Part shown: one piece after another, positions 6,415-49,107 of the stretch
How the letters are laid out: each line of letters starts with the position of its first letter
Position numbering within the stretch: the first letter of the stretch is position 1
IMG/VR virus record: IMGVR_UViG_3300029581_000016
Reading direction: 5' to 3' (one strand)
DNA: 57,417 nucleotides
From: a virus
Translations under genes and position numbers: made by a program
The notes under the pieces: model-generated
Told to the model about the DNA's origin: nothing
The model's input: only the letters and a program-made list of their open reading frames with translations
The model's database searches: none

Positions 6415-6847
6415 ACCAATAACCTTTGCAAGTGCTTGTGATTTTATCAATAGAAATCATAGACACCATAGAGCAACGGTCGGCTGTAAATTTTGTCTTT
6501 CATTATATGATGTTGATAAAATGGTTGGCGTGGCTGTCTGCGGAAGACCTGTATCTCGAATGTTAGATGATGGGTATACTTGCGAAATCAATAGAGTATG
6601 CACAGATGGAACTTACAATGCGTGTTCTATGTTATATGGTGCCTGCTGTCGTGTTGCCAAAGAAATGGGGTATAAAAAAGTTATAACCTATATTCTTGAG
6701 TCAGAAAATGGGGCAAGTTTGAAAGCAAGTAATTTTATTTGTGAAGGACTTGCTGGCGGAACGCATTGGACTGGTAGGAGGGACAGGGGGCAGGACATAC
6801 CAAGAGAAAAGAAAACAAGATGGGTGAGAATTTTAAGGAATTATTGA
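6404..6847 (+). CDS. GNAT-like small protein of the XF1762 type (often linked to phage methyltransferases)
   Basis: MEIRPITF..A..FI..NHRHH....G.KF...L......VGVAV.GRPV matches that family from memory. Start is the ATG at 6404. Confidence 0.45.
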   Translation: MEIRPITFASACDFINRNHRHHRATVGCKFCLSLYDVDKMVGVAVCGRPVSRMLDDGYTCEINRVCTDGTYNACSMLYGACCRVAKEMGYKKVITYILESENGASLKASNFICEGLAGGTHWTGRRDRGQDIPREKKTRWVRILRNY

Positions 6848-6861
6848 AAGGGTGAAAGAGA

Positions 6862-7194
6862 ATGAGTGATATTCCTATTGGTGCATACACATTTTCGGAT
6901 TCTTTTTTGAAAAACCTTAAGAAAGTTGAGTTGATAGAGCATTACAGAACATTGGAGAAAAATTGGTTTAATGAAATTAAATCAAGCAATATTCAAATGG
7001 ATAATTCAAAGAAACTGCTTAAAGAAGAATATAACAAGACTGTTGATGATTTGACCGCTAACATCATTGAGCGTTTTTCCGGAATGGCTATGTCAAGCGA
7101 ATTACCAACCGAGGGTGCAACTTGGGAAAATGCCATAAGGCAAGTAAAGCAGATAGCAGAACAGTTGAAAGGAGCGAAGCAGAATGAAGATTGA
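6862..7194 (+). CDS. hypothetical protein (110 aa)
   Basis: Clean ORF with an upstream purine-rich RBS. Confidence 0.55.
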   Translation: MSDIPIGAYTFSDSFLKNLKKVELIEHYRTLEKNWFNEIKSSNIQMDNSKKLLKEEYNKTVDDLTANIIERFSGMAMSSELPTEGATWENAIRQVKQIAEQLKGAKQNED

Positions 7195-7215
7195 CGATTT
7201 TATCGGAGGCGCGGA

Positions 7216-8277
7216 ATGACACAGATGAACCTATTTGACTATTTGCGAGAGCCTATCAGCATAACAAAGCCTATCCGATTGATAGAGTTGTTCGCAGGTT
7301 ACGGAAGTCAGGCTATGGCATTAAAGCGAATAGGTGCAAAATTTGAGCATTATCTTATATGTGAATGGGAAATGCATTCGGTTGCATCTTATAAGGCAAT
7401 TCACATGCCGGACGATAACACTGATTATAGCAATGGAATCGGCTCAGGACAAATAATCGAAAAGTTGACAAAGCTTGGGATATCTGTTGATGGAAAGACA
7501 GCACTTAGTGAAAATCAGATACGCAGCCATTCCTACGGAGAGATGTGGAGAAGGAAGTGTTACAATAACATAAAAGCTACGCATAATTTGGTCAATATAT
7601 GTGCAACTCACGGAAATGATTTAAAAATAGTTGATACGGAACACTTTACTTACTTACTTACTTATTCATTTCCTTGCACCGATTTATCAGTTGCGGGAAA
7701 GCAAATGGGAATGAGTAAAGGTAGTGGTACAAGAAGTGGTTTGCTATGGGAAGTTGAGAGGATTTTAACCGAAATCAGGGATAGTAACGGAGAACTGCCA
7801 CAGATACTGTTTATGGAAAATGTACCACAAGTCCATAGTCAAGACAATATGCCCGACTTTAGAAAGTGGTTAGACTTCCTTGAAAGTTTGGGATATGTGA
7901 ATTACTGGCAAGACTTGAACGCTAAGAATTATGGGGTTGCACAGAACAGAGAAAGATGTTTTATGTTCTCGTTCTTAGGAGAATATAATTACAAGTTCCC
8001 TAACCCTATACCACTCACAAAGCGGTTAAAGGACTACTTAGAGGAAGATGTGGACGAGAAATACTACATTAACAATGAAAAAGCGCAGAAGCTTATTCAG
8101 ACACTTATTGACAACGGAACATTGCCAGATACAATCCCTAAGAGCGAGCAGACTTGCGTTGACGGAACAATCTGTGAACCGGGAAGAAGAGAAATCGCAA
8201 ACTGTATCAAGGCAAAATATGACGCAGGAATCAGCAATTTGCGGTCTGACGGAAACTGTGTTGTTGAAAGCAGTTGA
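7216..8277 (+). CDS. DNA (cytosine-5) methyltransferase, N-terminal part (motifs I-VIII plus a first TRD-like segment)
   Basis: LFAGYGS (motif I), SFPCTDLSVAG (PC motif IV), MENVPQV (VI), AQNRERCF (VIII). It stops before motifs IX and X. Confidence 0.85.
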   Translation: MTQMNLFDYLREPISITKPIRLIELFAGYGSQAMALKRIGAKFEHYLICEWEMHSVASYKAIHMPDDNTDYSNGIGSGQIIEKLTKLGISVDGKTALSENQIRSHSYGEMWRRKCYNNIKATHNLVNICATHGNDLKIVDTEHFTYLLTYSFPCTDLSVAGKQMGMSKGSGTRSGLLWEVERILTEIRDSNGELPQILFMENVPQVHSQDNMPDFRKWLDFLESLGYVNYWQDLNAKNYGVAQNRERCFMFSFLGEYNYKFPNPIPLTKRLKDYLEEDVDEKYYINNEKAQKLIQTLIDNGTLPDTIPKSEQTCVDGTICEPGRREIANCIKAKYDAGISNLRSDGNCVVESS

Positions 8278-10980: not shown

Positions 10981-11184
10981 ATGAAGCTGTCAAAGCTGAC
11001 TAAGCCGGAGCTTGATGAAATTATTAACAACGCCAACTTCACAGAAGAAGAGATTGAAGTTTTTAAACTTCTTGCAAGAGGTAAAACGATAACGGAGATT
11101 GCACAGCAAGTATCGGTATGCAATCGTACAGTGAACAGGCGGATTAAAAAAATTAAGTCAAAAATCAGCAGATTGGAGGGGTAA
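10981..11184 (+). CDS. sigma-70 region-4 / LuxR-type HTH small regulator
   Basis: FTEEEIEVFKLLARGKTITEIAQQVSVCNRTVNRRIKKI. Confidence 0.6.
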   Translation: MKLSKLTKPELDEIINNANFTEEEIEVFKLLARGKTITEIAQQVSVCNRTVNRRIKKIKSKISRLEG

Positions 11185-11186
11185 TC

Positions 11187-11288
11187 ATGGTGATTGTGAC
11201 ACAGAATGGCAGGGAGATTAAGACAGGCGAAATCAAATTGCCGGACAAGACCAAAGAACTGATTGCATCAATAATTGACAATCAGTAA
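11187..11288 (+). CDS. tiny ORF (33 aa)
   Basis: RBS ggagggg. Ends just before a strong terminator. Very short. Confidence 0.3.
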   Translation: MVIVTQNGREIKTGEIKLPDKTKELIASIIDNQ

Positions 11289-11300
11289 ATATGAGCGTAA

Positions 11301-11338
11301 AATGTGCCGTAACGCGATAAGTACGGCACATTCTTTTT
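11301..11338 (+). terminator. intrinsic terminator
   Basis: 11-bp stem aatgtgccgta/tacggcacatt followed by cttttt. Confidence 0.8.
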
Positions 11339-11354
11339 AAGAGGAGGTTAAACA

Positions 11355-12716
11355 ATGGAATGTGTTGCGTACATGAGAGTATCAACGGAAAGGCAAGCCG
11401 AAGAAGGCAACGGACTTGAGAGCCAAAAGAGAGACATTCTCGACTACTGCTCCAAGAACGAACTAATCGTGACAGATTGGTATGTTGACGATGGTTACAC
11501 CGGGGCAAATATGAACCGCCCTGAGCTTCAAAGGCTTGTTGCTGACTGTAAGCATAAGAGGATATACTGTGTGGTGGCTTTTAAGCTCGACAGATTATCA
11601 AGGAATATGATTGACGGTCTATATATGATTGAGAAGATATTCCAACCGAACGGCGTACAGTTCAAGTGTGTGCATGATAGCGTAAACTACGACAGCCCAA
11701 TGGAACAGGCATATACTCAGATGATGGCAGTTTTTGCACAGCTTGACAAAAATACAATGATGTTGCGTATGCGTGGCGGTATGTTAGAAAGAGTGAAGCA
11801 AGGTTACTGGATGGGTGGTGGCAACTTGCCTTATTGCTACAGCTATGACAAGGATAGTGGAATCTTAATCCCTATTGCAGAACGCAAAGAACAGGCAAAT
11901 AAGGCACTTGAATTGTATATAAGTGGGTATTCGGATGCGATGATATGCGAAATATGCGGATATAAAGGAGAGCGTGTTGTCAATCGTATACTTACAAGCA
12001 CTGTCAACATCGGCATGATACCATACAAGGGCAAGATATATCAAGGTTTGCATGAGCCTATATTCAACAAGGAGCAGTTTGAACTTGCGCAACAGTTGAG
12101 AAAATCTCGAAGCTGCAATAAAGCAAGTTGCATAACTGAACCGAACTTATTGACAGGCTTATGTTATTGCGGTGTGTGCGGATGCGCCATGAGATACCAG
12201 AAGTGGACGCATGGAAAGCACAAGATATATTGCATGTCAAGAAATAAAGCTATGTCTTATCTGCCGAACCACAAGCCGGACTGCAATAATTCGCTTGAAT
12301 GGGCGGACGATATAGAGGAGCAAGTCGAGAAAGAAATGCTCAAAATATCGCTTGACTTATCATCGTACAAGCCTAAGGAGAAGGAAACGAAGCTTGATAT
12401 TATGCAGTCACAGCTTGACAAGGAACAGGCAAAATTGAAAAGGCTTTACGGCTTGTATGCGGATGGCAACGACACAGTGTTGAGCATGATTAAGGAGCTT
12501 GAAGCAAATATATCTGCGATTAAGGAGAACATTGCAGAAGAACGGAAGAACTTTTCGGCAAGACAGAAGAATACTATTGTATATGACGAAATAAAAAAAC
12601 TTGCCGATGTTTGGGACAGCATCGACAAGAAACAAAAAAATATGATATTAAAAACTATAATTGACAAGATAATCATTGTCAACGGAAATATTGAGATACA
12701 ATTAAAGAATTTTTAG
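11355..12716 (+). CDS. int: large serine recombinase (integrase)
   Basis: YMRVSTERQ catalytic serine motif, DRLSRN, a recombinase domain, the zinc ribbon CYCGVCGC..HKIYC and a C-terminal coiled coil. RBS aagaggagg. Confidence 0.9.
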   Translation: MECVAYMRVSTERQAEEGNGLESQKRDILDYCSKNELIVTDWYVDDGYTGANMNRPELQRLVADCKHKRIYCVVAFKLDRLSRNMIDGLYMIEKIFQPNGVQFKCVHDSVNYDSPMEQAYTQMMAVFAQLDKNTMMLRMRGGMLERVKQGYWMGGGNLPYCYSYDKDSGILIPIAERKEQANKALELYISGYSDAMICEICGYKGERVVNRILTSTVNIGMIPYKGKIYQGLHEPIFNKEQFELAQQLRKSRSCNKASCITEPNLLTGLCYCGVCGCAMRYQKWTHGKHKIYCMSRNKAMSYLPNHKPDCNNSLEWADDIEEQVEKEMLKISLDLSSYKPKEKETKLDIMQSQLDKEQAKLKRLYGLYADGNDTVLSMIKELEANISAIKENIAEERKNFSARQKNTIVYDEIKKLADVWDSIDKKQKNMILKTIIDKIIIVNGNIEIQLKNF

Positions 12717-12878
12717 CACTTACTGTATGCCATCCCTACGGCGGTATGCTAGTGCTAATGCCGTATTTATCGCGTTTTTTCAAAGTGGAAATTGAATATT
12801 TGTCGCTTTTATGTCGCCAAGCTGTCGCTTTAGGCGGCTTTTTTTATGCCAAAATATAAGCAAAAGGAGGGGTAACCG

Positions 12879-13040
12879 ATGTTGTCAGACAAAGTAATTG
12901 AGAAGATTTTCGCGAAAGAGGAAATTCAAAAAGCAGACCTGATGACGGTATCTCTTATTATTCACGCAGTTGGCGAAGCTATCGAGGAGGTAGAAGAAGA
13001 AAATGCAAATAAACAATCCTCAATACAACAATCCTTATAA
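12879..13040 (+). CDS. small acidic protein (53 aa)
   Basis: RBS aaaaggagggg. Overlaps the next ORF by 38 nt. Below the track cutoff. Confidence 0.35.
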   Translation: MLSDKVIEKIFAKEEIQKADLMTVSLIIHAVGEAIEEVEEENANKQSSIQQSL

Positions 13041-13539
13041 CATTCCGAGCTATTATCCACAGCAGTACACAGGTTATCCACAATACTTACAGCAAATGCA
13101 GGCGGCAAGGTATCAGCCTCAGGAACAGGCACCGGTGCAGATGCAGGGAACATATCAGCAACAGTCAGTAGGCATCAATGGGCGAATGGTACAGTCTGTT
13201 GAGAACATCAACGCTAATGAAGTGCCTATGGACGGCTCAATGGCGTTTTTCCCCAAGCAAGATATGTCGGAAATATACGTCAAGGGTTGGAACGCTGATG
13301 GGACAATTAAGACGATTGTGTATAAGCCCCAAATAGACAATAAATCTGTGCAAGCGGTAAATACTTCACTTGATACGGAAAAACTCAAAATTGACCTATC
13401 AGAGCAAGTTACAGCAGGCATTATGCAACGCTTCGATGACTTATCAGCCAAGATTGAGCAGTTGGAGAACAAGGTAGCTTTAGGGACGCAGAGAAAAACT
13501 TCGCAATCGCAAAGCAAAAAGGAGAGTGACGAGGCATGA
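13003..13539 (+). CDS. Q/N/Y/P-rich N-terminus plus coiled-coil protein
   Basis: MQINNPQYNNPYNIPSYYPQQYTGYPQYLQQMQ..., then a globular segment and a C-terminal coiled coil. Confidence 0.6.
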   Translation: MQINNPQYNNPYNIPSYYPQQYTGYPQYLQQMQAARYQPQEQAPVQMQGTYQQQSVGINGRMVQSVENINANEVPMDGSMAFFPKQDMSEIYVKGWNADGTIKTIVYKPQIDNKSVQAVNTSLDTEKLKIDLSEQVTAGIMQRFDDLSAKIEQLENKVALGTQRKTSQSQSKKESDEA

Positions 13540-13772
13540 TAAACCCAATGCAGTTAATTCAAATGATGCGTGGCGGCAATCCGCAGCAGTTTTTACAACA
13601 GATGATGGGGAATAACAGCGTAATGAGCAACCCTATGGCTAGAAACGCTATGCAGATGGCTCAAAAAGGAGATTCCAAGGGCATAGAGCAGATGGCTAGG
13701 AATTTGTGTCAAGAAAAAGGGTTAAATGCAGATGATGTATTTAATCAGATAAAAAGTAGATTTGGTAATTAA
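13536..13772 (+). CDS. Q/M/N-rich small protein
   Basis: ATGA overlap. Sequence MINPMQLIQMMRGGNPQQFLQQMMGNNSVMSNPMARNAMQMAQ. Confidence 0.55.
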   Translation: MINPMQLIQMMRGGNPQQFLQQMMGNNSVMSNPMARNAMQMAQKGDSKGIEQMARNLCQEKGLNADDVFNQIKSRFGN

Positions 13773-13842
13773 TAGCATATTAGATGTCTTTGCAAACTAC
13801 CTAGGTGACATCTTTATGAATATATTTTTAGGAGGTAACAAT

Positions 13843-14631
13843 ATGTTTTCAAACTCAAATTGTGCCAGCGTGCCATTAGTCGCGAACATTGACGGCAACA
13901 GCAATAACGGCGGATGGGCTGACGGTGGATGGCTTTGGATAATCGTTGTATTTGCCTTGCTCTTTGGATGGGGCAATGGCGGATTTGGCGGTTTTGGTGG
14001 CAACAATGGCGGTGGCTATGTTGCGACAGCGGCTACACAGGCTGATATTCAGAGAGGCTTCGACAATTCGGCAGTTATCAGCAAGTTAGACGGCATTTCC
14101 AACGGACTTTGCGATGGTTTTTATGCTATGAATAACAGTATGCTTACCGGCTTCAATGGTATTAACACAAATATCATGCAGACCGGTTATGGCATCCAGC
14201 AGGCTATCAACGCTGATACAGTCGCTAATATGCAGAATACAAACGCTTTACAGTCACAGCTCGCTAACTGTTGCTGTGAGACAAGAGAAGCCATACAGGG
14301 TGTGAACTACAATATGGCAACTAACACCTGCGCTTTGCAGAACACAATGAATAATAATACAAGAGATATTATCGACAGCCAGCAGGCAGGAACTAGAGCA
14401 ATCCTTGACTTCTTGACAAATGACAAGATTGCAACCTTACAGGCAGAGAACAACGATTTACGCAGAGCTGCTTCACAGGATAGACAGAATGCACTTCTGA
14501 CTACCACAATGGCAGCACAGACAAATCAGATAATCGACGCTATAAGGCCTACACCAGTACCATCATTCCCGGCAAGCAACCTTTACGGATATGCTTATGG
14601 ATGTGGTTGCAATACAGGTTGTGGCTGCTAA
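13843..14631 (+). CDS. Gly-rich single-pass membrane protein with Cys clusters
   Basis: RBS ggaggt. Has GGWADGGWLWIIVVFALLFGWGNGGFGGFGGNNGGG, an NCCCE motif and the C-terminus YGCGCNTGCGC. Confidence 0.6.
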   Translation: MFSNSNCASVPLVANIDGNSNNGGWADGGWLWIIVVFALLFGWGNGGFGGFGGNNGGGYVATAATQADIQRGFDNSAVISKLDGISNGLCDGFYAMNNSMLTGFNGINTNIMQTGYGIQQAINADTVANMQNTNALQSQLANCCCETREAIQGVNYNMATNTCALQNTMNNNTRDIIDSQQAGTRAILDFLTNDKIATLQAENNDLRRAASQDRQNALLTTTMAAQTNQIIDAIRPTPVPSFPASNLYGYAYGCGCNTGCGC

Positions 14632-14806
14632 ACAACTGAATAATCAAGTATCTTAATCAGATTGGGTGCTTTTGAGTTCCACTCGAAAGAAAACTCGAAA
14701 GATTATGTCTGCTAAGCAGTATTACGTTGGTACCGACATTGATGTCGGGAGCATGGGGCAGACTTGTATGGTTTGCCCTTATTTTTTAGAAAGAGAGGTA
14801 AAAACA

Positions 14807-15226
14807 ATGGAAATTACAGGAATCGCATTACAAACAGTTGCTGCTGGCGAGGATGTGGCGTTTACAGAAACACCAGTTTGCGGTAGTAAGTGTATCGTAC
14901 ACAGACAGGGAAGTGGAATTATCAAGTTAAGAGGTATTACAAATCAGTGCAAAGCAAGATTTTTAGTATCTTATAGTGGAAACATTCAGATACCTACAGG
15001 CGGCACAGTTGAAGAGATTTCACTTGCCATAGCAGTAGACGGAGAGCCTTTACAGTCTACAAAGATGATAGTCACTCCAGCAGCAGTTCAAAATTTATTT
15101 AACGTATCGGCACAAGCATATGTTGATGTACCTTGCGGCTGTTGCAGTACAGTAGCGGTGCAGAATACATCTACGCAGGCTATTGAGGTACAGAACAGTA
15201 ACTTAATTGCAGTAAGGGAGGCTTGA
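14807..15226 (+). CDS. all-beta small protein, possibly a C1q/TNF-like (BclA C-terminal-like) jelly roll
   Basis: Alternating beta pattern ...RFLVSYSGNIQIP...ISLAIAVDGEPL...VAVQNTS..IEVQNSNLIAVR. The fold assignment is by resemblance only. Confidence 0.55.
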   Translation: MEITGIALQTVAAGEDVAFTETPVCGSKCIVHRQGSGIIKLRGITNQCKARFLVSYSGNIQIPTGGTVEEISLAIAVDGEPLQSTKMIVTPAAVQNLFNVSAQAYVDVPCGCCSTVAVQNTSTQAIEVQNSNLIAVREA

Positions 15227-15232
15227 CGTAAT

Positions 15233-15964
15233 ATGCACATTGAAAGAATCCACAAAATGATTGAATGTCTTACAGAGAAAGCCTTATGCGAGCTTGATAA
15301 GGGTGTTGAGAATGTCAACACAGAGGAAATGGGCGAAGCGGTCGATATGATTAAGGACTTGTGCGAGGCAGAGTACAAGGCTGTTATCGTTAAGTCTATG
15401 AAGAAAGCTGATGAGGAAGAGGAAGAGTATAACAAGGAACTTCTTAGAACCTTAAAGGATGAGTATGGCGAAGAGGGCGGCAGAAGATACTATGATGAAT
15501 ACCGCTATATGCGTACTGGCAGGTATGCACCAAAGGGCAAGGGCAGTTATGTAGGCAGACGCGGCTACGAGGAGCCACCATACTGGCACAGATACCCGGG
15601 CGATATGACAGATATGGATTATGACAGCATGGAGCGCATGAGAAACATGGACAGATTAAGCCGGGGCAGAATGTATTACACCGACATGTCAGACCGCATG
15701 GGAATGATAGACCAGCCGAGAAGTGGCAGTGCTGCCGAGCGTGATATGCGTGAGGGTAGAAGTGGCATGAGCCGCAAGCATTACATGGAGACTAAGGAAC
15801 AGCACAAGGCTAACACCCAGCAGGACAAGGACGCAAAAATGCAGTCACTTGATGAATACATGAAGGAGCTGTCAACGGACTTAACCGACATGATAAGCGA
15901 CATGACACCAGAAGAGCGTTCACTTATGAAGAGCAAAATGTCAATCCTGTTGACTAAAATGTGA
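15233..15964 (+). CDS. acidic/R-Y-G-D-M-rich low-complexity protein
   Basis: EEEEEYNKELL..GGRRYYDEYRYMRTGRYAPKGKGSYVGRRGYEEPPYWHRYPGDMTDMDYDSMERMRNMD. Confidence 0.6.
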   Translation: MHIERIHKMIECLTEKALCELDKGVENVNTEEMGEAVDMIKDLCEAEYKAVIVKSMKKADEEEEEYNKELLRTLKDEYGEEGGRRYYDEYRYMRTGRYAPKGKGSYVGRRGYEEPPYWHRYPGDMTDMDYDSMERMRNMDRLSRGRMYYTDMSDRMGMIDQPRSGSAAERDMREGRSGMSRKHYMETKEQHKANTQQDKDAKMQSLDEYMKELSTDLTDMISDMTPEERSLMKSKMSILLTKM

Positions 15965-16010
15965 TTTATGAGGTAGGGGCAGAAATGCTCCTACCATTGT
16001 GAGGTATAAT

Positions 16011-16331
16011 ATGTTTACAATCAACGGCATTAACTGGAGCTTAATATTCGTCAATAATTCAAGTCCTGACTTGTTGCGTTCAGACGGCACTACAAGTCTT
16101 GCTGTGACCGACTGGAACCGCAAGAGTATATTTGTATCACTAGCACCTAAAGGGGCTTATCTGAGGCGTATAATCGCTCATGAGCTATGCCATGCGTTTT
16201 GCTTTAGTTATGACATATCAATGCCGATTGAGCAGGAGGAATACCTTGCCAACTGGATAAGCTTGTACGGCACTGATTTGATTTATTTGCTTGATGGTAT
16301 TATGTCAAGTTTATCACGGAGGGCAGTATGA
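16011..16331 (+). CDS. small HExxH zinc-metallopeptidase-like protein
   Basis: IAHELCHAF motif. The ATG at 16011 follows gaggt. Confidence 0.55.
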   Translation: MFTINGINWSLIFVNNSSPDLLRSDGTTSLAVTDWNRKSIFVSLAPKGAYLRRIIAHELCHAFCFSYDISMPIEQEEYLANWISLYGTDLIYLLDGIMSSLSRRAV

Positions 16332-16468
16332 CAGCGGAACAGTTATTAGAGTACATCCGGAGAACTAACCCGGAAATGACAATGGAGCGCATGATATACG
16401 AGCTTAGCCAAAGCATATATACGGCTAAATCTGTGATTTTTACGGCGCAAAATCAAGTCAAAAAATAA
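16328..16468 (+). CDS. tiny ORF (46 aa)
   Basis: ATGA overlap with the upstream stop. Confidence 0.4.
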   Translation: MTAEQLLEYIRRTNPEMTMERMIYELSQSIYTAKSVIFTAQNQVKK

Positions 16469-16909
16469 TGCAAAAATTTTTAATCGCCCCCACCTATGGA
16501 AATGAAAAATAAAAAATCGAAGTCAAATTCTTGTGAAATTTGGCTTCGATTTGGTGTCATTTTGTCTGATATTCTCGATATTTTTTTTCAAAAATTTTCC
16601 CTAAAATTTTTGGGTCAACATTTTTGGTACGCCCCTATACCCGAAACGCAAAATATAAAAACCGATTTACGATTTTGCCAAAATTTGGCTCTGATTTGGT
16701 GTTGTTTTTGAGCCAAAAACAGCTCTGTATGACAGCGGGACCAGTAGAATGTCACACCCAAAATCGCCCGGCTCTGCCTATGACAACGAAGTTAGGCACA
16801 ACAAACAGACCCCCAAACAGCATCACGTTACAAGCCGCCGCTCATTAAGGGTGCAGTTGTCCGCTTGATGATAAAATAGCACTTCGATTTCAATTTGTCA
16901 AGGAACGAC

Positions 16910-16939
16910 AAAAAGAGAACTTCTGAAAGTTCTCTTTTT
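16910..16939. terminator. bidirectional intrinsic terminator
   Basis: 9-bp stem agagaactt/aagttctct with loop ctga, flanked by AAAA on one side and TTTT on the other. It ends the leftward operon. Confidence 0.75.
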
Positions 16940-16945
16940 AACTGC

Positions 16946-17107
16946 TTATTCCTCCTCAATGGTATCAAGCACCATCTGGATGGCATACTCACGGGAGCAC
17001 ATCTCGGCGCCATCCCATCTATTCGCCTCAATCATCTTGTTGGCTTCGGTCGTTGCATCGGCACGGGTGTAGCCGCAGCTCATGAGCCAGTCAATTATCT
17101 TGTCCAT
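16946..17107 (-). CDS. hypothetical small protein (53 aa)
   Basis: Minus-strand MDKIIDWLMSCGYTRADATTEANKMIEANRWDGAEMC... with RBS gggaggg. Below the track cutoff. Confidence 0.5.
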   Translation of the reverse strand: MDKIIDWLMSCGYTRADATTEANKMIEANRWDGAEMCSREYAIQMVLDTIEEE

Positions 17108-17201
17108 GTCAAACCCTCCCTTGTTAAATTTTCAAGCCCCAAAGCGGAGCTGATACCGCCGCCCGGCAATGAGTCGGGGACATTCTCTGCGGCGGTGATT
17201 T

Positions 17202-17504
17202 TTACAAGCCGTAAAAGCCAAGAAGTTCAGCCTTGCGATTATTATCAAACACGACCTCAGTTTTGCGAACACCAAAATCGCAAAATAGCCAAGTGTCGCC
17301 GGCGACTATCGAAACTGCCAACCCTCCCATCAACGCGTGGTCGACGCTGCCAGCCACTGCATAAGCCAACATCTCAACTGTACCCTTTGGTAGGCAAGTC
17401 AACATAAGAGCCTCGCTTGTAGCCGTTTTTTTGGCTACAAGCTCCATGATTTCATTGCTAGACGCAAATGCGTCATTACAACTATAAATATCTAGTTTTT
17501 TCAT
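17202..17504 (-). CDS. hypothetical protein (100 aa)
   Basis: ORF-track entry. RBS ggaggt 7 nt upstream. Confidence 0.6.
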   Translation of the reverse strand: MKKLDIYSCNDAFASSNEIMELVAKKTATSEALMLTCLPKGTVEMLAYAVAGSVDHALMGGLAVSIVAGDTWLFCDFGVRKTEVVFDNNRKAELLGFYGL

Positions 17505-17550
17505 TTTAATACCTCCATATATTTAATTATCTAGCCGATTTTATCGGCTG

Positions 17551-17591
17551 AAAAGCAACCCGGGGAATCGAACCCCGGCAGTGCGCCGCCT
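17551..17591 (-). repeat. 41-nt tRNA 3'-half-like element, left copy (perfect inverted repeat of 19222-19262)
   Basis: The reverse complement equals aggcggcgcactgc-cgggg-ttcgatt-ccccg-ggttgct-ttt. Confidence 0.9.
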
Positions 17592-17603
17592 CCGGTGATT
17601 GCC

Positions 17604-18116
17604 TTAATCCAAACAGCTTTCCCATGAAATCGCATACCGCGATTTCAGTAGGTCGTATGCTCTATTCGTGACTTTATAAGCGTTCCAGCCGCTCTTATAC
17701 TGCCCGGAGCTTGTCAAGTCACCGGCTTTGTACGTTTTCAAAAACTGGATGCCGCGCCCCTTAAGCTCTAACGGAGTGTCGATAAATATATGACCTCCGT
17801 AATATGCGCGGTGGGCTTCTATCTGACAGCCTTCCGGTTTCTGTTGTCCCATTTCTGGGGTATATGCATAAATCCCGGGCTTTTCAGCCTTCAATGCTTC
17901 CCCTTGTGGTGGGGTGGCAAGTTCAAGACGTTTGCCCCTGCCAATACGGCGCAGGGTGTGAAGCTCGCTTTCTGAAATGTCGCCATTTTCGAAAAGTGTC
18001 TCAGCAATGTCCAGATAGGCATTACAGCTTGCGACATTGTCGCAGATTTTGAACAGTGCAACAAGATTATAATATCCGTTGCTCCTCTTTTCAGGGAACT
18101 GTATTATTTCTCCCAT
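17604..18116 (-). CDS. hypothetical protein (170 aa)
   Basis: ORF 17604-18122. The second ATG (18116) is 6 nt from ggagg. Confidence 0.6.
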   Translation of the reverse strand: MGEIIQFPEKRSNGYYNLVALFKICDNVASCNAYLDIAETLFENGDISESELHTLRRIGRGKRLELATPPQGEALKAEKPGIYAYTPEMGQQKPEGCQIEAHRAYYGGHIFIDTPLELKGRGIQFLKTYKAGDLTSSGQYKSGWNAYKVTNRAYDLLKSRYAISWESCLD

Positions 18117-18209
18117 ATTCATCCTCCTTGTAATGTTAAAATTTTAATACCCCTATAAAGAGGGAAGAACCGCCGCCGGTATCGGTCCGGCTGGCATCCT
18201 CTGCGACGG

Positions 18210-18389
18210 CTATTTTTTACGACTGTAAAAATTCTCGCAAGCCTCGTCGAACTCCTCCGGCGTGGCGATGAAACGAACGCGGTAGCCGTTGCCTCTGAGA
18301 GCATCAGCATAAGCTCTCTTTGTTGTAAAAGTATCATTTTTTACAACTTGTATCTCTCCCTCATATCTCACGCTTGCCATTAACATCAT
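18210..18389 (-). CDS. hypothetical small protein (59 aa)
   Basis: Minus-strand MMLMASVRYEGEIQVVKNDTFTTKRAYADALRGNGYRVRFIATPEEF... with RBS aaggagg. The track instead lists a spurious overlapping frame (18119-18337). Confidence 0.55.
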   Translation of the reverse strand: MMLMASVRYEGEIQVVKNDTFTTKRAYADALRGNGYRVRFIATPEEFDEACENFYSRKK

Positions 18390-18448
18390 ATATAGTCACC
18401 TCCTTGTTTTTGGGTACAACAAACACATGTTCTGTATCTGTTCTATTT

Positions 18449-18495
18449 CCCTTTCGTTGATATTATAATATCACGATTATTAGAGAATGTCAACA
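18449..18495 (-). promoter_or_regulatory. leftward promoter/operator, left copy of a 47-bp inverted repeat
   Basis: The reverse complement reads tgTTGACAttctctaataatcgTGaTATTATaatatcaacgaaaggg, a 46/47 match to 18822-18868. Confidence 0.7.
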
Positions 18496-18525
18496 AGAAA
18501 ATCACTTTTTTTAGAGATTTTTTTA

Positions 18526-18554
18526 TTGACAAAACCGCAGCGCCTTAATATAAT
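18526..18554 (+). promoter_or_regulatory. consensus sigma-A-type promoter of the HTH gene
   Basis: TTGACA (18526-18531), a 17-nt spacer, then TATAAT (18549-18554). Confidence 0.7.
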
Positions 18555-18577
18555 GTAGTCACTGAGGAGGTGATATA

Positions 18578-18820
18578 TTGATATCTTATAAGATAAATGT
18601 TATGGAAGCATTAAAAGAGGCAGGTTTTAATGGTTCAACAGCAAAACAGACCGGGATTTTCAGCCAGAGCACAATGCGGAAGTTTAAAGAGGGCGACACT
18701 GGAATAACCCTGGACAATCTCAACCGCTTGTGCTGCATTCTCGAGATGCAGCCACGCGACATCATTAAGTTTACGGAGACTGACGATGATAGAAATAATA
18801 TTTTAAAAAATATAAAATAA
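18578..18820 (+). CDS. XRE-family HTH repressor-like protein (80 aa)
   Basis: TTG start 7 nt after gaggagg. STMRKFKEGDTGITLDNLNRLCCILEMQPRDII is an HTH_26/XRE pattern. Confidence 0.7.
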   Translation: MISYKINVMEALKEAGFNGSTAKQTGIFSQSTMRKFKEGDTGITLDNLNRLCCILEMQPRDIIKFTETDDDRNNILKNIK

Positions 18821-18821
18821 G

Positions 18822-18868
18822 TGTTGACATTCCCTAATAATCGTGATATTATAATATCAACGAAAGGG
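18822..18868 (+). promoter_or_regulatory. rightward promoter/operator, right copy of the 47-bp inverted repeat
   Basis: TTGACA 18824-18829, 17-nt spacer, TG-extended TATTAT 18847-18852. The palindrome cgtgatattataatatcaacg spans the -10. Confidence 0.7.
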
Positions 18869-18929
18869 AGAAGATAAGAATTTTCGAACGTGTGTTTGCT
18901 ACACGAAAAATTAAAATGGAGGTTCTAAG

Positions 18930-19202
18930 ATGGATTTTAAAATTCAGTGGAGAAGAGAAAACAGAGCTGCCGACCCGGCAGCAGTTATAAAAATTAAAAA
19001 AGTTCTCAGGGAGCTGCCAGAACTCCTTGAGAACGACACAATCACAATTAACCCTAGTGATTGTGATTTCATCGAGCGATGTGCAGATGAGTATTGCTCA
19101 AAACTCCGTACATTGAAGTATGGATATGACCCAGAGCTGGCGATACGCTGTGTTGTCAGCGACTGGGAACGCAGCGAGTTGGAGGCACTCGGTTTGCGGT
19201 AA
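18930..19202 (+). CDS. hypothetical protein (90 aa)
   Basis: RBS atggagg. Clean ORF. Confidence 0.6.
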   Translation: MDFKIQWRRENRAADPAAVIKIKKVLRELPELLENDTITINPSDCDFIERCADEYCSKLRTLKYGYDPELAIRCVVSDWERSELEALGLR

Positions 19203-21410: not shown

Positions 21411-21433
21411 ATGTTTAAAGACATGTAATTTTT

Positions 21434-21505
21434 CGGGCTATCGTCAAGCGGTAAGGCACAGCACTTTGACTGCTGTATTCGTCGGTTCGAATCCGACTAG
21501 CCCAG
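21434..21505 (+). tRNA. tRNA-Gln (anticodon UUG)
   Basis: Hand-folded cloverleaf. The anticodon arm is cagca-ctTTGac-tgctg and the T arm is gtcgg-ttcgaat-ccgac. The 1:72 pair is a C:A mismatch. No CCA is encoded. Confidence 0.8.
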
Positions 21506-21733
21506 TTTGGTCATGCAAATGACCATCGGACTTTTAAGTCATGTTGTTTCATAAACTCCACCTATTAGCGGAATGCTGTTAAGAGCCGTCACAAGGCTCG
21601 ATAGGTTTTCGGGTTTTGTTGCTGTAGTTACCCGGCGCTCCATAACACGCTAAAAGAATAGCAACAGTGCGGACAACATAAGCCGGGAAGCTTGCGACGC
21701 TGCTGATTCTCGCTGTCGCCCAGTCTGCACTTA

Positions 21734-21807
21734 CGGAATATAGTTCAGTTTGGCAGAACGCTCCACTTGGGATGGAGAGGTCGTAGGTTCAAATCCTGCT
21801 ATTCCGA
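21734..21807 (+). tRNA. tRNA-Pro (anticodon UGG)
   Basis: Acceptor cggaata/tattccg, D stem gttc/gaac, anticodon arm ctcca-ctTGGga-tggag, T loop ttcaaat. Confidence 0.85.
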
Positions 21808-21899
21808 CTGCCTCGAATGAGGCACAAAGCAATACCCCTTTTGATTCAATTTTCGTGTAGCCTTGCCACCGCTCGGCAAGTAAAACAAAGAGCGGACAT

Positions 21900-21971
21900 G
21901 GCGCATTAGTCAAGTGGTTAAGACACCGCCTTTTCACGGCGGAGACGTGAGTTCGATTCTCTCATGCGTCA
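21900..21971 (+). tRNA. tRNA-Glu (anticodon UUC)
   Basis: Acceptor ggcgcat/atgcgtc, anticodon arm ccgcc-ttTTCac-ggcgg, 4-nt variable loop as in bacterial tRNA-Glu. One mismatch in the T stem. Confidence 0.75.
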
Positions 21972-21990
21972 TTTAGGCATAATTGTCTAT

Positions 21991-22063
21991 TGGCATGTAG
22001 CTCAGTTGGTAGAGCAATCGGCTGTTAACCGATGTGTCGTGGGTTCAATCCCCACCTTGCCAG
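21991..22063 (+). tRNA. tRNA-Asn (anticodon GUU)
   Basis: D arm gctc-agttggta-gagc, anticodon arm atcgg-ctGTTaa-ccgat, T arm gtggg-ttcaatc-cccac. One acceptor mismatch. Confidence 0.8.
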
Positions 22064-22187
22064 TTAAACTTACGGTAATCACTCTGACAAAGGATTGCCG
22101 TAAGCGGTATAAAGTCCGCATAAAATTGTACAAGGTAGCGACAAAAGCAATTTTAGGTATGGCGGTTACGCTACGACTGCCGTACTT

Positions 22188-22270
22188 GCCAACATGGTGT
22201 AATGGTATCACAGCGGCTTGCTAAGCCGTCCAACAGAAATGTTGTACAGGTTCAAATCCTGTTGTTGGCG
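22188..22270 (+). tRNA. tRNA-Ser (anticodon GCU), long variable arm
   Basis: Acceptor gccaaca/tgttggc, anticodon loop ttGCTaa, variable arm caaca-gaaa-tgttg, T arm acagg-ttcaaat-cctgt. Confidence 0.85.
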
Positions 22271-22344
22271 TTTTCACATACAAGCGAAATGGAAATATAG
22301 TTGTTGGCTATCTGTATTTTCCTAAAACCAACCGGTATGTGAGT

Positions 22345-22594
22345 TGATGTGTGGCGGAAGAGGTAGACGATAATCAGATATACAAGACTTCGCTCGGTGA
22401 AACTGCGTAACGATATATGCAAGCGAGATAGCGTGAAACATCCCCTTGATTGGTTGTGAAAGCAATGCTACCCATTATACCAATGGATGCGGATAAGTTT
22501 GGAAGATGTTCCCATAGACTTGCACGAAGGGTAAAACGAGGCGTCGGTACACGCCTATTGTATATTATGTGTGGTGCAAATCCACACCGCATCA
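22345..22594 (+). ncRNA. candidate structured RNA with a tRNA-like terminal domain (function unknown)
   Basis: The 5' tgatgtg can pair with the 3' cgcatca (7 bp) next to a T-arm-like hairpin gtgtgg-tgcaaat-ccacac. The interior has GNRA-capped and 6-bp hairpins. No credible ORF. Confidence 0.25.
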
Positions 22595-22631
22595 ATCTTT
22601 CAGTATTGGCACTGAATTACAGAGGACTACA

Positions 22632-22838
22632 ATGGACTATTTTGGCATGTATAGAGATATATGGACATTCCACAAAAAGTACATCGACAAGATAAGCTTT
22701 GCTGATGATAAACTCTGGAACAGCATAATCCAAGAAGCAAGTGAACTCGGTAAAAAGTACGGCAACTGTGAGTTCATAGGTGAGCTGATAAGGAATGAGG
22801 TGAATGAGTTTGAGCGAATTGCGAAAAAGACTGTTTAA
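22632..22838 (+). CDS. hypothetical protein (68 aa)
   Basis: ORF 22569-22838. The ATG at 22632 follows agagga. Confidence 0.55.
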   Translation: MDYFGMYRDIWTFHKKYIDKISFADDKLWNSIIQEASELGKKYGNCEFIGELIRNEVNEFERIAKKTV

Positions 22839-22895
22839 TCAAAATCTTAGAGGAAACAAAATCATTAGCAAATAGTGTGAAAAAAGGAGTGAGGT

Positions 22896-25986: not shown

Positions 25987-26184
25987 ATGAAAAAAGATAA
26001 ATGCAAAATATACTGTCCACAATGCCACCGCCGGGTTGCGGAGTGGGACGGAAAATATTCAGGGAATATAATTGCCGGTTGCCGTAAGTGTCACAAAAAG
26101 ATTGTGTATTACACAAATACAGGCATTACGGACACAAAGCCATGGGAGCCAAGGAGAACGGCAAGTGGCATGACATATCTATAA
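25987..26184 (+). CDS. Cys-rich zinc-ribbon protein (KTR-like)
   Basis: CPQCHRR....GCRKCHKK two-CxxC arrangement. Confidence 0.5.
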   Translation: MKKDKCKIYCPQCHRRVAEWDGKYSGNIIAGCRKCHKKIVYYTNTGITDTKPWEPRRTASGMTYL

Positions 26185-26198
26185 GGAGCAGATAACTA

Positions 26199-27635
26199 AT
26201 GAACCGTGGAACACTTCAAGACCTTGTTAGAGGTTGCTATGGGCGAAAAATTGCATACACCGATGTAGATACAATAACTGCTAACAATGTTTTTAAGGTT
26301 ATTGGAAGTACTATTGGTATATTTAATTGGAATAAACCAATAATTAAGTATCTGTGGGACTATTACAAAGGCGACCAACCAATATTATACAGGCACAAGC
26401 TAAATAACGAAGATATTACAAACAAGATTGTAGAGAACCACGCATATGAAATTGTCCAATTCAAGGTAGGACAGACATATGGTGAACCAATCCAGTTTAT
26501 AAGCCGCAAAGATGATGAGACTATCAATAAAGCTGTTGATATGCTTAATGATTTTATGACAGATGCCAATAAACAAGAAAAAGACATTAAAGCTGGAGAA
26601 TGGCAATCAGCAACAGGAACATCCTTTAAGGCTGTCCAACCTAAAAATGGCGATGTGCCATTTAGAATTGTAGCACCCACACCAATGAATACTTATACTG
26701 TCTACAATGAAAGCACAGAAGAACCTATGCTTGTTGTGCAGGAACTTAAAGACGAGGACGGAAATTGGTATAAAATGGCATTCTCCGACACCACATCATT
26801 CAGAATTGTTGACAGCAAAGTAGTTGAAGCAAAACTACATACATATGGTGAAATTCCTATCGTTGAGTTTCCTAATAATCACGAAAGAATATCCGATATT
26901 GAGCTTGTTATCGGTATGCTTGACGCTATCAACAATATGCAGTCTAACAGAATGGATAGCATACAGCAGTTTGTCGAGTATTGGGTTAAGTTCGTGAACT
27001 GTGAAGTTGATACAGAAACTTTCAATAAAATGAAAGAGAGCCATGCTCTTGTTGTTAAGTCTATCAATAAGGACAACAAGTCCGATGTAGAGATTATGAC
27101 ACAAGAGCTTAATCAGACACAATGCCAAGTTGCTAAGGAAGATTTGTGGGATAACACATTATCTATATTGGCTATACCAAACAAGCAGGGCAACACAGGT
27201 GGAGATACTCAAGGAGCGGTCGAGTTAAGAAATGGATGGGATTTCTCTAAGACGAGAGCAAAGCTAAAAGACCCCATTGTTAAATCATGTGAAAAGCGAT
27301 TGGCTGTAGTGGTTCTTAATATATTAAGACTTGCAGGAAATGATTTAAAATTGTCAGTTAGAGATTTTGACATACAAATAAATCACAGTCCGCAGGACAA
27401 TATGTACACTAAGGCACAAACCCTTACAGTACTGCTTCAAAGTGGAATACATCCGCTTATAGCGATTAAGACAGTAGGATTATGGGGGGATGCAGAAAAA
27501 ACATTCTTGCTATCAAAACCATATCTGGACAATATATACAAGACTATTGAAAATGCAAAAGAGCAAGAAAAGAAAGCACAGGAGATAGTTAATCAACTCA
27601 ATAATAATCAGCAAAATAAGGCAGTTATCGAATAA
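26199..27635 (+). CDS. portal protein (SPP1 Gp6-like)
   Basis: 478 aa, immediately after terL. The N-terminal ...KYLWDYYKGDQPIL... is typical of SPP1-family portals. Confidence 0.85.
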   Translation: MNRGTLQDLVRGCYGRKIAYTDVDTITANNVFKVIGSTIGIFNWNKPIIKYLWDYYKGDQPILYRHKLNNEDITNKIVENHAYEIVQFKVGQTYGEPIQFISRKDDETINKAVDMLNDFMTDANKQEKDIKAGEWQSATGTSFKAVQPKNGDVPFRIVAPTPMNTYTVYNESTEEPMLVVQELKDEDGNWYKMAFSDTTSFRIVDSKVVEAKLHTYGEIPIVEFPNNHERISDIELVIGMLDAINNMQSNRMDSIQQFVEYWVKFVNCEVDTETFNKMKESHALVVKSINKDNKSDVEIMTQELNQTQCQVAKEDLWDNTLSILAIPNKQGNTGGDTQGAVELRNGWDFSKTRAKLKDPIVKSCEKRLAVVVLNILRLAGNDLKLSVRDFDIQINHSPQDNMYTKAQTLTVLLQSGIHPLIAIKTVGLWGDAEKTFLLSKPYLDNIYKTIENAKEQEKKAQEIVNQLNNNQQNKAVIE

Positions 27636-48400: not shown

Positions 48401-48559
48401 ATGTTGGGTAAGGTGAAGTTAAAAGAACGAGCCGAATTAACCAAAGAAGCTATTGACAACAAAGAACAAATCATTAAAATGATAACTAAAATAGAAGATG
48501 CAGGCACCCTAGAGTACCTGCATACATTCATCAAACTTTTTTTAGAGAAGTGGGGTTAA
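48401..48559 (+). CDS. tiny protein (52 aa), paralogue of 41480-41593
   Basis: RBS gggagggg. C-terminus TLEYLHTFIKLFLEKWG. Confidence 0.5.
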   Translation: MLGKVKLKERAELTKEAIDNKEQIIKMITKIEDAGTLEYLHTFIKLFLEKWG

Positions 48560-48933
48560 TCCTCACTTTTCTTTTTTCGAGATAACATAACATCAATCAT
48601 GCCTAAAATGGTATCTTTATCTCTTTGGTCTAACAAAGAAAATTTCCACATTAAATCAATATCCTTATCGGCTTTGACCGACTTGTCTTTGCGTTCTGGC
48701 GAAACATCAAAACCCATAAGCCATGCTTCTGAAACATCCAAAGCCATTCCTAGAATAACTAGCTTTTCTTGGCTTGGTTCGACTTTGCCTGACACATACT
48801 GGCTAATATCAGATTTATTCATCTTGATATTGTATTCCTTACAGTATGGTGCAGAAAGAGTAAGAATATCGACTTGCTTCAATCTTCTTTCGCTCATTAG
48901 TTTTTTGAGCCTATCTGCGGTTGTCTCTTTCAC
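48556..48933 (-). CDS. CI-like XRE-family repressor (no S24 domain)
   Basis: The GTG at 48933 follows aaaggagga. LKKLMSERRLKQVDIL...SDISQYVSGKVEPSQEKLVILGMALDVSEAWLMG is a classic HTH_3. Divergent from the cro-like gene. Confidence 0.75.
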   Translation of the reverse strand: MKETTADRLKKLMSERRLKQVDILTLSAPYCKEYNIKMNKSDISQYVSGKVEPSQEKLVILGMALDVSEAWLMGFDVSPERKDKSVKADKDIDLMWKFSLLDQRDKDTILGMIDVMLSRKKKSED

Positions 48934-48971
48934 TTTGGTTTTCCTCCTTTCGTATAACAATATAACACTAT

Positions 48972-49078: not shown

Positions 49079-49107
49079 TTAAAAACGAGAAAGGAGAGGC
49101 AAAGAGA

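Follow-up and report, generated by a model that had tools for sequence, protein, structure and literature searches.

What is a row of eight co-directional genes, several of them of extreme amino acid composition, doing directly 3' of a large serine recombinase in a phage genome? The question is raised by the IMG/VR virus record IMGVR_UViG_3300029581_000016, a stretch of 57,417 nt (hereafter "the window"), in which eight open reading frames (ORFs), here called g1-g8, occupy positions 12879-16468. A first-pass annotation had taken them for moron or cargo genes at a prophage end and had proposed lysogenic conversion of the spore surface, with an unrecognised virion-surface or entry module as the alternative. 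Our analysis indicates with high confidence that g1-g8 and a small helix-turn-helix (HTH) gene form a conserved, self-contained and separately regulated module, not sporadic cargo; we describe it as an att-proximal phage accessory module containing a protein with the BclA_C/TNF fold. It may serve the productive cycle and is probably not a spore-specific lysogenic-conversion cassette, and of the two original proposals the virion-surface or entry module is now the better bet. The genes, with their lengths in amino acids (aa), ratios of nonsynonymous to synonymous substitution (dN/dS) and PHROG matches where available, are as follows.

12879-13040, + strand: g1, a 53-aa acidic protein; dN/dS 0.20; found in 67 of 80 related loci (described below).
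13003-13539, + strand: g2, a protein with a Q/N/Y/P-rich head, a small beta domain, a coiled coil and a K/E-rich tail; PHROG 21718, 1.8e-10.
13536-13772, + strand: g3, a 78-aa Q/M/N-rich protein.
13843-14631, + strand: g4, a 262-aa single-pass protein with an ATG start; PHROG 16490, 2.6e-57.
14807-15226, + strand: g5, a 139-aa protein with conserved Cys, predicted to be a stand-alone BclA_C/C1q-TNF-like jelly roll; PHROG 20016, 4.7e-67.
15233-15964, + strand: g6, a protein with an acidic helical N-terminus, an R/Y/G/D/M-rich low-complexity middle and a helical C-terminus.
16011-16331, + strand: g7, a 106-aa HExxH (zincin-like) protein; PHROG 1233, 3e-10.
16328-16468, + strand: g8, a 46-aa protein translationally coupled to g7; found in 75 of the 80 loci.

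All eight ORFs lie where the first-pass annotation had placed them. The compositional bias it remarked on is borne out for g2, g4 and g6, which are outliers against the 49 other ORFs of the window: Q, N, Y and P make up 67% of residues 1-55 of g2 (maximum 36% among 55-aa stretches of the other ORFs), R, Y, G, D and M account for 69% of the best 55-aa stretch of g6 (49% maximum elsewhere in the genome), and Gly reaches 40% over 30 aa in g4 (23% maximum elsewhere). The motifs that had been quoted are also present, namely GGW/GGFGG flanking one hydrophobic helix, NCCCE and a C-terminal YGCGCNTGCGC in g4, CGCC in g5, and IAHELCH in g7. Two descriptions had to be amended. The low-complexity head and the coiled coil of g2 are both there, but do not follow each other directly, since a small conserved beta domain (..IYVKxxxADG..YKP) lies between them; and of the "two tiny acidic proteins" only g1 is acidic, as g8 has 5 D/E versus 6 K/R. 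All eight genes are under purifying selection, with median dN/dS against relatives ranging from 0.029 in g5 (at dS 0.64) to the value given above for g1, over a dS range of 0.2-2. The GC content of the module is 0.43-0.46 versus 0.40 in its flanks, and g2, g3, g5 and g6 have no signal peptide, as read directly from the sequences. Searches of Pfam, NCBIfam, PADLOC and PDB sequences returned no explanatory match for g1-g4, g6 and g8, and every component that matches a PHROG bears the label "unknown function".

The notion of sporadic cargo did not survive a survey of distribution, which found the operon in practically every locus of two sets of 80 related viral loci each. In the first set, 80 IMG/VR loci selected by similarity to g5, the genes g4, g6 and g7 occur in 79-80 loci, g2 in 76 and g3 in 73 (g1 and g8 as listed above). 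Directly 5' of the module, 24 of these loci have a serine integrase and 16 or more a tyrosine integrase; in the remaining ones the contig ends 2.0-2.7 kb 5' of g5, i.e. at att. In Dulem virus 39 (a circular genome of 59.7 kb from lemur faeces) the whole set g1-g8 follows a serine integrase in unchanged order; identity to the window is 36% in the capsid, 41% in the portal, 53% in the terminase and 42% in the integrase, but 69-71% in g5 and 64% in g3. The prophages with a tyrosine integrase (L007-L011 and L014) are located downstream of metA, with the module again first after attL. Module proteins can remain more than 90% identical across an integrase swap, while attB shifts from sigG (see below) to a site downstream of metA. 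One such swap is seen when L012 (7127-8804) is compared with the window (10981-12716): the serine and tyrosine integrases replace each other in the slot between the HTH gene, of the sigma-region-4 type, and the module, and the tyrosine integrase is accompanied by a Tn916-Xis-like gene.

The module also extends beyond this lineage. Approximately 600 gut-type and 500 rumen-type contigs in IMG/VR have it. At least four phage backbones are involved, and the module stands beside a serine or tyrosine integrase or right after the lysis cassette. The series that follows the lysis cassette of Butyrivibrio phage Ceridwen comprises a sigma-region-4 HTH gene, a 125-aa Cys/His/Asp protein, a Q/P/Y-rich coiled-coil protein with a beta domain, a small Q-rich protein, g4, g5, an HNH insertion, a protein with an acidic helix and an R/Y-rich part, and a further gene, g9. 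Only g4 (31-33% identity) and g5 (44%) of Ceridwen are detectable by BLAST with the window proteins. Comparison of window and Ceridwen-type families with hhalign gave a probability of 93.8% for g2 (E 1.7e-7) and 88% for g3 (E 3e-6), versus less than 2% for unrelated control pairs; for g6 the hhalign comparison was not significant, and analogues are present by position and composition. This gene order is shared by 80 Ceridwen-type loci from IMG/VR, in many of which an integrase on the reverse strand comes next. In Dulem virus 33 the lysin is on one side of the module and a reverse-strand integrase on the other, in a Vescimonas fastidiosa prophage the same series has host genes on its 3' side, and in Bajarodcaudo virus 5 (L098) it follows a holin and a lysin, the g5 slot excepted. 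The only match of the module in the plasmid collection is a prophage on a Vescimonas chromid. Ceridwen has no annotated integrase and has been seen in lytic growth only (PMC7372960). It is well supported by these data that the module is one of temperate siphophages whose hosts are Clostridia of the gut and rumen (Lachnospiraceae and Oscillospiraceae), that its invariant core is g4 and g5 surrounded by the low-complexity partners g2, g3 and g6, and that the accessory set is specific to the lineage, being g7 and g8 in the window type and a 125-aa CPDC protein and g9 elsewhere. No paper on the module was found in the literature.

Several variations on this scheme were observed. The Ceridwen-type modules lack g7 and g8 and carry instead the 125-aa protein and the conserved g9 of approximately 110 aa (22484-22861 and 26121-26447 in Ceridwen, L096; 4967-5347 and 8468-8857 in Dulem virus 33, L097). 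An HNH-type endonuclease separates g5 from g6 in Ceridwen (L096 24928-25722) and in several rumen loci, and an endonuclease on the minus strand separates g3 from g4 in Dulem virus 33 (L097 6043-6594). In the Vescimonas record (L186) the HTH gene and the gene for the 125-aa protein are unannotated and fall in the gap at 6448-7397. This "C39-like" protein has an invariant His and Asp, a nearly invariant Asp-Cys and a CPDC motif; a search for a papain- or transglutaminase-like enzyme or a thiol oxidoreductase gave no Pfam match and only an 18-residue match to a glutaredoxin motif (E 0.12).

The first-pass annotation had likened g5 to the C-terminal domain (CTD) of BclA and to C1q/TNF-like jelly rolls, a likeness that our modeling corroborates. 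The AlphaFold2 (AF2) model is all-beta, with a predicted local distance difference test score (pLDDT) of 73.8 and a predicted template modelling score (pTM) of 0.70. Its best Foldseek matches in the PDB are the F-BclA CTD (9h38; E 5e-7, template modelling (TM) score 0.72-0.74), the BclA CTD (1wck, TM 0.69; 2z5w; 3tyj) and ExsFA/BxpB (7r1m and 8d02; TM 0.59-0.64), followed at lower rank by TNF ligands and two cyanophage tail proteins. In BFVD, g5 matches many stand-alone proteins of approximately 140 aa, named "BclA protein" or uncharacterized, from metagenomic gut sipho-, myo- and podophages, as well as collagen-like/C1q proteins and tail fibres. The Pfam family BclA_C (PF18573) is matched by 7 of 54 diverse g5 relatives (36-58% identity; best E 2.3e-10), the g5 of the window itself having no such match at E<=0.1; a profile of the g5 family searched against the PDB finds 9h38 at E 0.16. 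The protein has no repeats and no collagen-like GXX stalk, and its family members are almost all stand-alone and 135-150 aa long. We regard g5, on the strength of the model and its Foldseek matches, as a predicted stand-alone BclA-C/C1q-TNF-like jelly roll. It has 1385 close homologues and falls into 669 clusters at 50% identity; the A2 alignment of distant relatives was too diverse to serve as a probe in the locus scan, and the distant relative P0191 used as a probe found nothing. In two tyrosine-integrase prophages (L009 and L011, at 11799-13079), g5 and g6 are separated by an AntA-domain gene together with a second g5 paralogue of 142 aa (52% identity). In Bajarodcaudo virus 5 the g5 slot (L098 7680-8099) is occupied by an unrelated beta-rich protein of 139 aa with a Cys-rich N-terminus (GGYGCGGC), a Thr/Pro-rich tail and no Pfam match, which may be a non-orthologous replacement.

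The other core protein, g4, consists of a hydrophobic helix flanked by Trp and Gly, a helical hairpin of approximately 160 aa, the CCC motif and the C-terminal CGCNTGCGC; its Cys motifs are invariant among homologues. AF2 models it as helices only (hydrophobic helix 29-41, long helices 77-150 and 156-234) at pLDDT 45, because of which the model was excluded from the fold search. There are at least 7868 homologues of g4 and 1267 of g2; like the close homologues of g5, they bear no other name than "hypothetical". PDB sequence searches with g4, g5, g7 and the profiles of g2 and of the C39-like protein yielded nothing meaningful. The resemblance to spore-coat proteins that the first-pass annotation had seen in the compositions (GerQ in g2, YjcZ in g4, CotG in g6) is not reflected in any family model. 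Neither g2 nor its counterparts in Dulem virus 33 and Dulem virus 39 match the Pfam or NCBIfam models of GerQ; g4 has no Pfam or NCBIfam match to YjcZ at E<=0.1, the "tiny TM" YjcZ model being approximately 50 aa long versus the 262 aa of g4; and g6 shows only 2-copy micro-repeats, with no CotG-like tandem repeats and no match to a hidden Markov model (HMM). In g7 the HELCH motif is accompanied by sub-threshold Pfam scores for Peptidase_M78 (16.3 bits, cut-off 22) and SprT (14.9 bits, cut-off 25.6), and its orthologue in Dulem virus 39 matches DUF6782 at 2e-4, under the cut-off; g7 is an accessory part particular to the window-type lineage. The possibility that g3 is a bacteriocin precursor with a double-glycine leader was considered and rejected, as the GG motif varies among orthologues.

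How is the module expressed? The following signals, read from the window and compared with orthologous loci, bear on this question.

10981-11184, + strand: a stand-alone 67-aa HTH protein of the sigma70-region-4/GerE (LuxR) type, with NCBIfam LuxR-type and sigma70-ECF matches.
12801-12831, + strand: three phased TGTCGC(T/C) direct repeats, approximately 11 nt apart; a candidate regulator-binding site.
12813-12847, + strand: a hairpin followed by T7, an intrinsic-terminator-like insulator 5' of g1; -13.2 kcal/mol.
12845-12855, + strand: TATGCCAAAAT, an extended -10-like element of the TRTG type with no recognisable -35; a putative promoter.
14755-14789, + strand: a hairpin and T-run between g4 and g5, attenuator- or terminator-like; -15.6 kcal/mol.
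16514-16552, + strand: a long hairpin 3' of g8, the probable end of the transcription unit; -19.5 kcal/mol.

The 67-aa HTH protein is a putative dedicated regulator of the module. An ORF of the same length at the matching position in L013 and L100 is recognised by Pfam GerE, and across lineages the gene encodes 67-82 aa, with Sigma70_r4 matches for the gene directly 5' of the module in Bajarodcaudo virus 5 and Ceridwen. A small Sigma70_r4 HTH gene is present in 54 of the 80 rumen-type loci, and Dulem virus 33 has a small unmatched ORF in that position. It appears that, in the window type, insertion of the integrase and attP has separated the regulator from g1. Phased repeats of the (A/T)TGCAC type occur at the equivalent place 5' of the module in distant lineages. 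Comparison of eight orthologous upstream loci revealed that the stem sequence of the hairpin 5' of g1 varies while its pairing is kept and its T7 run is invariant, and that T[AG]TGC[CA]A[AC]AAT, followed by an AAGGAG ribosome-binding site, is present in all eight. These upstream signals read as a terminator followed by a candidate TRTG extended -10 promoter lacking a -35. The -10-like element occurs once in the window, for which reason we rejected the idea of a shared late promoter. The g4-g5 spacer (14632-14806, 175 nt) holds an extra 104-aa gene in L007 and L012, and the window spacer may therefore be a remnant or an internal attenuator. The sporulation-sigma promoters that the first-pass annotation had suggested looking for upstream of 12879 and 14807 did not turn up: a regular-expression scan based on the B. 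subtilis consensus, from which that of Lachnospiraceae may differ, detected no complete sigE/K/F/G-type promoter in the eight orthologous upstream regions or 5' of g5, the sole match being an isolated sigK -10 motif in L003.

The integrase and the attachment site lie between the HTH gene and the other signals.

11355-12716, + strand: a large serine integrase of 453 aa; Pfam Resolvase, Recombinase and Zn_ribbon_recom; PHROG 95 (integrase), 3.7e-97.
12717-12752: attP, with the crossover within CCTA at approximately 12735-12738, from comparison of attL and attR of integrated relatives with the window.

The window begins and ends with an exact 99-nt direct repeat (1-99 = 57319-57417) and thus represents a complete circular phage assembly of approximately 57.3 kb; it encodes a terminase, portal, capsid, tape measure and tail proteins, and a CI/Cro-like pair (48556-49332). 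Since the integrase, attP and the operon are contiguous, the window corresponds to the attP form and not, as had been thought, to a prophage end; of the original "moron or cargo at a prophage end" the att-proximal position remains, and the cargo turns out to be a core module. The junctions of integrated relatives, from which both attP and attB are drawn, reveal that the phage integrates inside the forespore sigma factor gene sigG, in a skin-like arrangement, between the codons for ..YAVP and MIIGEI.. (attL in L099 and L101, attR in L185). The host order at attL in L099 and L101 is murD, ftsW/spoVE, an EPSP-synthase-family gene, an unannotated ORF, ftsZ, spoIIGA and sigE, then a 100-aa sigG' ORF with sigma region 2 only, which ends in ...FSTYAVP at the junction and continues with TAVC and a stop. 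The junction and g1-g8 follow directly, so that in both loci the module is co-directional with, and immediately 3' of, spoIIGA-sigE-sigG'. The attR was found with a gapped pattern against viral contigs (an exact pattern gave no match in the metagenome collection): in L185 a 453-aa integrase closely resembling that of the window is followed by ...ACTGTATGCCATGCCT joined to ATGATAATAGGC..., with a C-terminal SigG fragment of 165 aa (MPMIIGEIRRYLRD...) 3' of the integrase junction. The isolate Lachnospira intestinalis CLA-AA-H89B (L004), which is in culture, has a related prophage that adjoins the C-terminal 162 aa of SigG (NCBIfam, 6e-78) in the opposite orientation. The attL or sigG fragments are located at 7448-7900 in L099, 2727-3180 in L101, 14400-14951 in L185 and 7421-7930 in L004. 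Hosts of window-type phages possess sporulation genes, including SpoIIP and the spoIIGA-sigE-sigG region. We found no paper reporting an element that intervenes in sigG; sigK, spsM, gerE, yabG and similar cases have been described.

We propose, with a probability of roughly 0.4, that the products of the module form a late-made, cytoplasmically assembled, cross-linkable structural assembly that is released with or on the virions. The HTH protein would bind the phased direct repeats and switch on the extended -10 promoter that has no -35, the terminator hairpin shielding this promoter from outside transcription. The products would be non-enzymatic structural proteins that assemble in the cytoplasm at the membrane, with g4 as the anchor, because apart from g4 they carry no export signal. 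The assembly could be a layer or fibre, cross-linkable through Cys, Tyr and Gln-Lys and bearing trimeric g5 knobs, which would become extracellular only upon cell lysis, on or with the progeny virions, as a protective or adhesive coat. We favor this interpretation because the proteins appear non-enzymatic, of low complexity and Cys-rich, without export signals; because the module is core in its lineages and has a putative dedicated regulator, whose gene closes the late region in Ceridwen-type phages; and because it is kept in Ceridwen, for which only lytic growth has been observed and in whose host group key sporulation genes are missing.

Several observations weigh against this proposal. The slot between lysin and att is the classic position of lysogenic-conversion genes in phages of low-GC Gram-positive bacteria, and the module has the moron-like hallmarks of its own promoter-like element and flanking terminators, recognised at the level of consensus. 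The closest relatives of Ceridwen carry an integrase just 3' of the module, so Ceridwen may be a recent virulent derivative that retained it. It is odd for a co-evolving virion add-on that g5 should be so invariant amid diverging capsid and tail proteins, and it is not obvious where a tailed virion would accommodate a membrane anchor. Finally, the AF2 model of g4 is of low confidence, as given above, and g2, g3 and g6 have no fold assignment.

A first rival reading is a module of the moron type, which would be active in vegetative lysogens and responsible for superinfection exclusion, receptor masking or envelope remodelling through g4 and its partners. Its att-proximal or post-lysin position, its own signals and a GC content slightly above that of the flanks would suit such a role; its movement among backbones whose integrases differ points to a function that does not depend on the virion, and the extreme conservation of g5 would suit a conserved host target. 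However, seven of the eight products lack an export signal and therefore cannot reach the surface of an intact cell. Their compositions look structural, unlike those of known exclusion or defence proteins, and PADLOC detected no anti-phage defence system, the only match being a weak one of the g4 coiled coil to the ZorA tail (E 0.001). Moreover, the module is not sporadic in its lineages, it persists in a phage observed only in lytic growth, and in Ceridwen-type phages the gene for its regulator is found 3' of the lysin, at the end of the late region. We regard this explanation as unlikely, though less so than those that follow.

A bolder and quite doubtful combination is a phage-encoded exosporium-like coat, in which a GerE-type regulator, a membrane anchor, a trimeric hub resembling BclA and ExsF, and cross-linkable proteins rich in Gln/Lys, Tyr and Cys would build a knobbed layer around virions or, where the host forms spores, on the spore, and the phage that splits sigG would both gate sporulation and remodel what exits the cell.

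Lysogenic conversion of the spore surface, in which the prophage would make coat- or exosporium-like proteins in the mother cell for deposition on the spore, fares no better, and we consider it improbable. The link to sporulation that the first-pass annotation had sensed is real, inasmuch as attB lies inside sigG, the module is found 3' of spoIIGA-sigE-sigG' in two loci and the hosts of window-type phages carry sporulation genes. The solved structures nearest to g5 in fold also belong to exosporium proteins (F-BclA, BclA and ExsFA/BxpB), the Gln/Lys, Tyr, Cys and Gly compositions recall cross-linked coat proteins, the regulator is a stand-alone HTH of the GerE type, and products without signal peptides fit assembly in the mother-cell cytoplasm. 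Spore-surface conversion itself gains support neither from promoters nor from coat families: none of the proteins has an HMM match to GerQ, YjcZ, CotG or any other coat family, no sigE/K/F/G-type promoter was detected, and the conserved terminator-like hairpin would insulate the module from upstream host transcription. The integration site and orientation vary (opposite in the Lachnospira prophage, downstream of metA in L007-L011 and L014), and a prophage in sigG blocks sporulation unless it is excised. The module is also abundant in phages of Butyrivibrio, the rumen and Vescimonas, and rumen Lachnospiraceae lack key sporulation genes (PMC3971600). BclA_C/TNF-like knobs are, besides, common in phage fibres and giant-virus fibrils.

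Equally hard to credit is an accessory role in lysis, in which g4 would be a pore-former of the glycine-zipper type or a holin-like factor, its partners tuning or completing the lysis of Clostridia with unusual envelopes. The location of the module directly 3' of the holin-lysin genes in four lineages, the Gly-rich hydrophobic helix of g4 and the failure to recognise a canonical holin-lysin pair 3' of the tail genes in the window are in line with such a role. Lysis-type enzymes are, however, encoded at other places in the window, and the window-type module stands apart from every gene for a lytic enzyme; lysis systems offer no precedent for a TNF-like knob or for proteins rich in Q/N/Y or R/Y, the helix of g4 is not flanked by the charges typical of holins, and five to eight genes would be a large set for the purpose. 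The remaining explanation, that these are chance or decaying ORFs and nothing more than low-complexity sequence, is refuted by dN/dS of 0.03-0.20 in all eight genes, thousands of homologues, and a gene order conserved in hundreds of contigs and across backbones.

The variable cargo of this region is not g1-g8 but a block of four small genes on the minus strand (16946-18389), located between the module and the late-proximal region; it is missing from nearly all relatives, and no family match was found for the four genes. Within it, CCGGGGTTCGATTCCCCGG (17560-17578, minus strand) resembles the T-arm of a tRNA, although ARAGORN calls no tRNA there; it may be a remnant of a tRNA or att site, or merely a terminator hairpin. 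Rfam detected no structured RNA in window positions 12000-19000. A cluster of five tRNA genes is found at 21433-22271 (Gln-TTG, Pro-TGG, Glu-TTC, Asn-GTT and Ser-GCT); a connection with the Q/N/P-rich genes of the module was rejected, as codon usage in the module does not favor the cognate codons.

Few blocks of unknown function in the phages of Lachnospiraceae and Oscillospiraceae are as widespread or as constrained as this module. If its products form a cross-linked virion coat or fibre, they would follow a structural principle that is new among tailed phages of anaerobes, with a possible bearing on the survival of particles in oxygen and on adhesion in the gut; an exosporium-like coat would represent a phage structure, or a manipulation of the host, of a novel kind, shared by thousands of phages from gut and rumen. 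The problem is tractable, given the exosporium-type fold predicted for one component, the regulator of the sigma-region-4 type, and two cultured systems that contain the module, Butyrivibrio phage Ceridwen and the prophage of Lachnospira intestinalis CLA-AA-H89B. With a complete phage integrated in sigG, the skin/SPbeta paradigm of split mother-cell genes comes to include a forespore (germ-line) gene, which raises the question whether sporulation of the lysogen is blocked or is rescued through excision.

In its integration, the window phage resembles skin (in sigK) and SPbeta (in spsM). In the skin layout a large serine recombinase lies at the element's border, next to the C-terminal fragment of the split gene (10.1101/2022.02.25.481979), and the window phage likewise has its serine recombinase at the edge, immediately 5' of the C-terminal fragment. 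It differs in splitting the forespore gene sigG instead of a mother-cell gene and in being a complete 57-kb phage. The pairing of a ~70-aa HTH protein of the LuxR/sigma-region-4 type with low-complexity proteins rich in Cys, Tyr and Gln is reminiscent of GerE and the late spore-coat genes of Bacillus subtilis, a likeness in architecture and composition only, with neither orthology nor a sigK-type promoter. As to g5, the BclA CTD and ExsFA/BxpB (PF18573; 1wck, 9h38, 7r1m and 8d02) share its predicted C1q/TNF jelly roll (TM 0.6-0.74), and ExsFA/BxpB is, like g5, a stand-alone domain of ~140 aa without a signal peptide. Unlike BclA, g5 is sub-threshold in Pfam and has neither a collagen-like stalk nor a recognisable exosporium-targeting N-terminus; unlike the exosporium proteins of Bacillus, it is a phage product, made also by phages whose hosts do not sporulate, and its trimeric state and any anchoring role are putative. 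Virus-encoded, cytoplasmically assembled and surface-exposed knobs of the same fold class are found in the short tail fibre CBD of cyanophage A-1(L) (8ke9) and in collagen-like C1q proteins of giant viruses. Fibre knobs, however, are C-terminal domains of long fibre proteins in structural modules, whereas g5 is a free protein of 139 aa in a separate module, encoded beside a membrane protein and partners of low complexity, and is far more conserved than usual receptor-binding tips. Finally, the moron regions of siphophages of low-GC Gram-positive bacteria share with the module the lysin-att slot and their own promoter- and terminator-like signals, but morons are sporadic and usually comprise one or two genes, whereas the module comprises five to eight genes and a regulator, is part of the core of its lineages and is under strong purifying selection.

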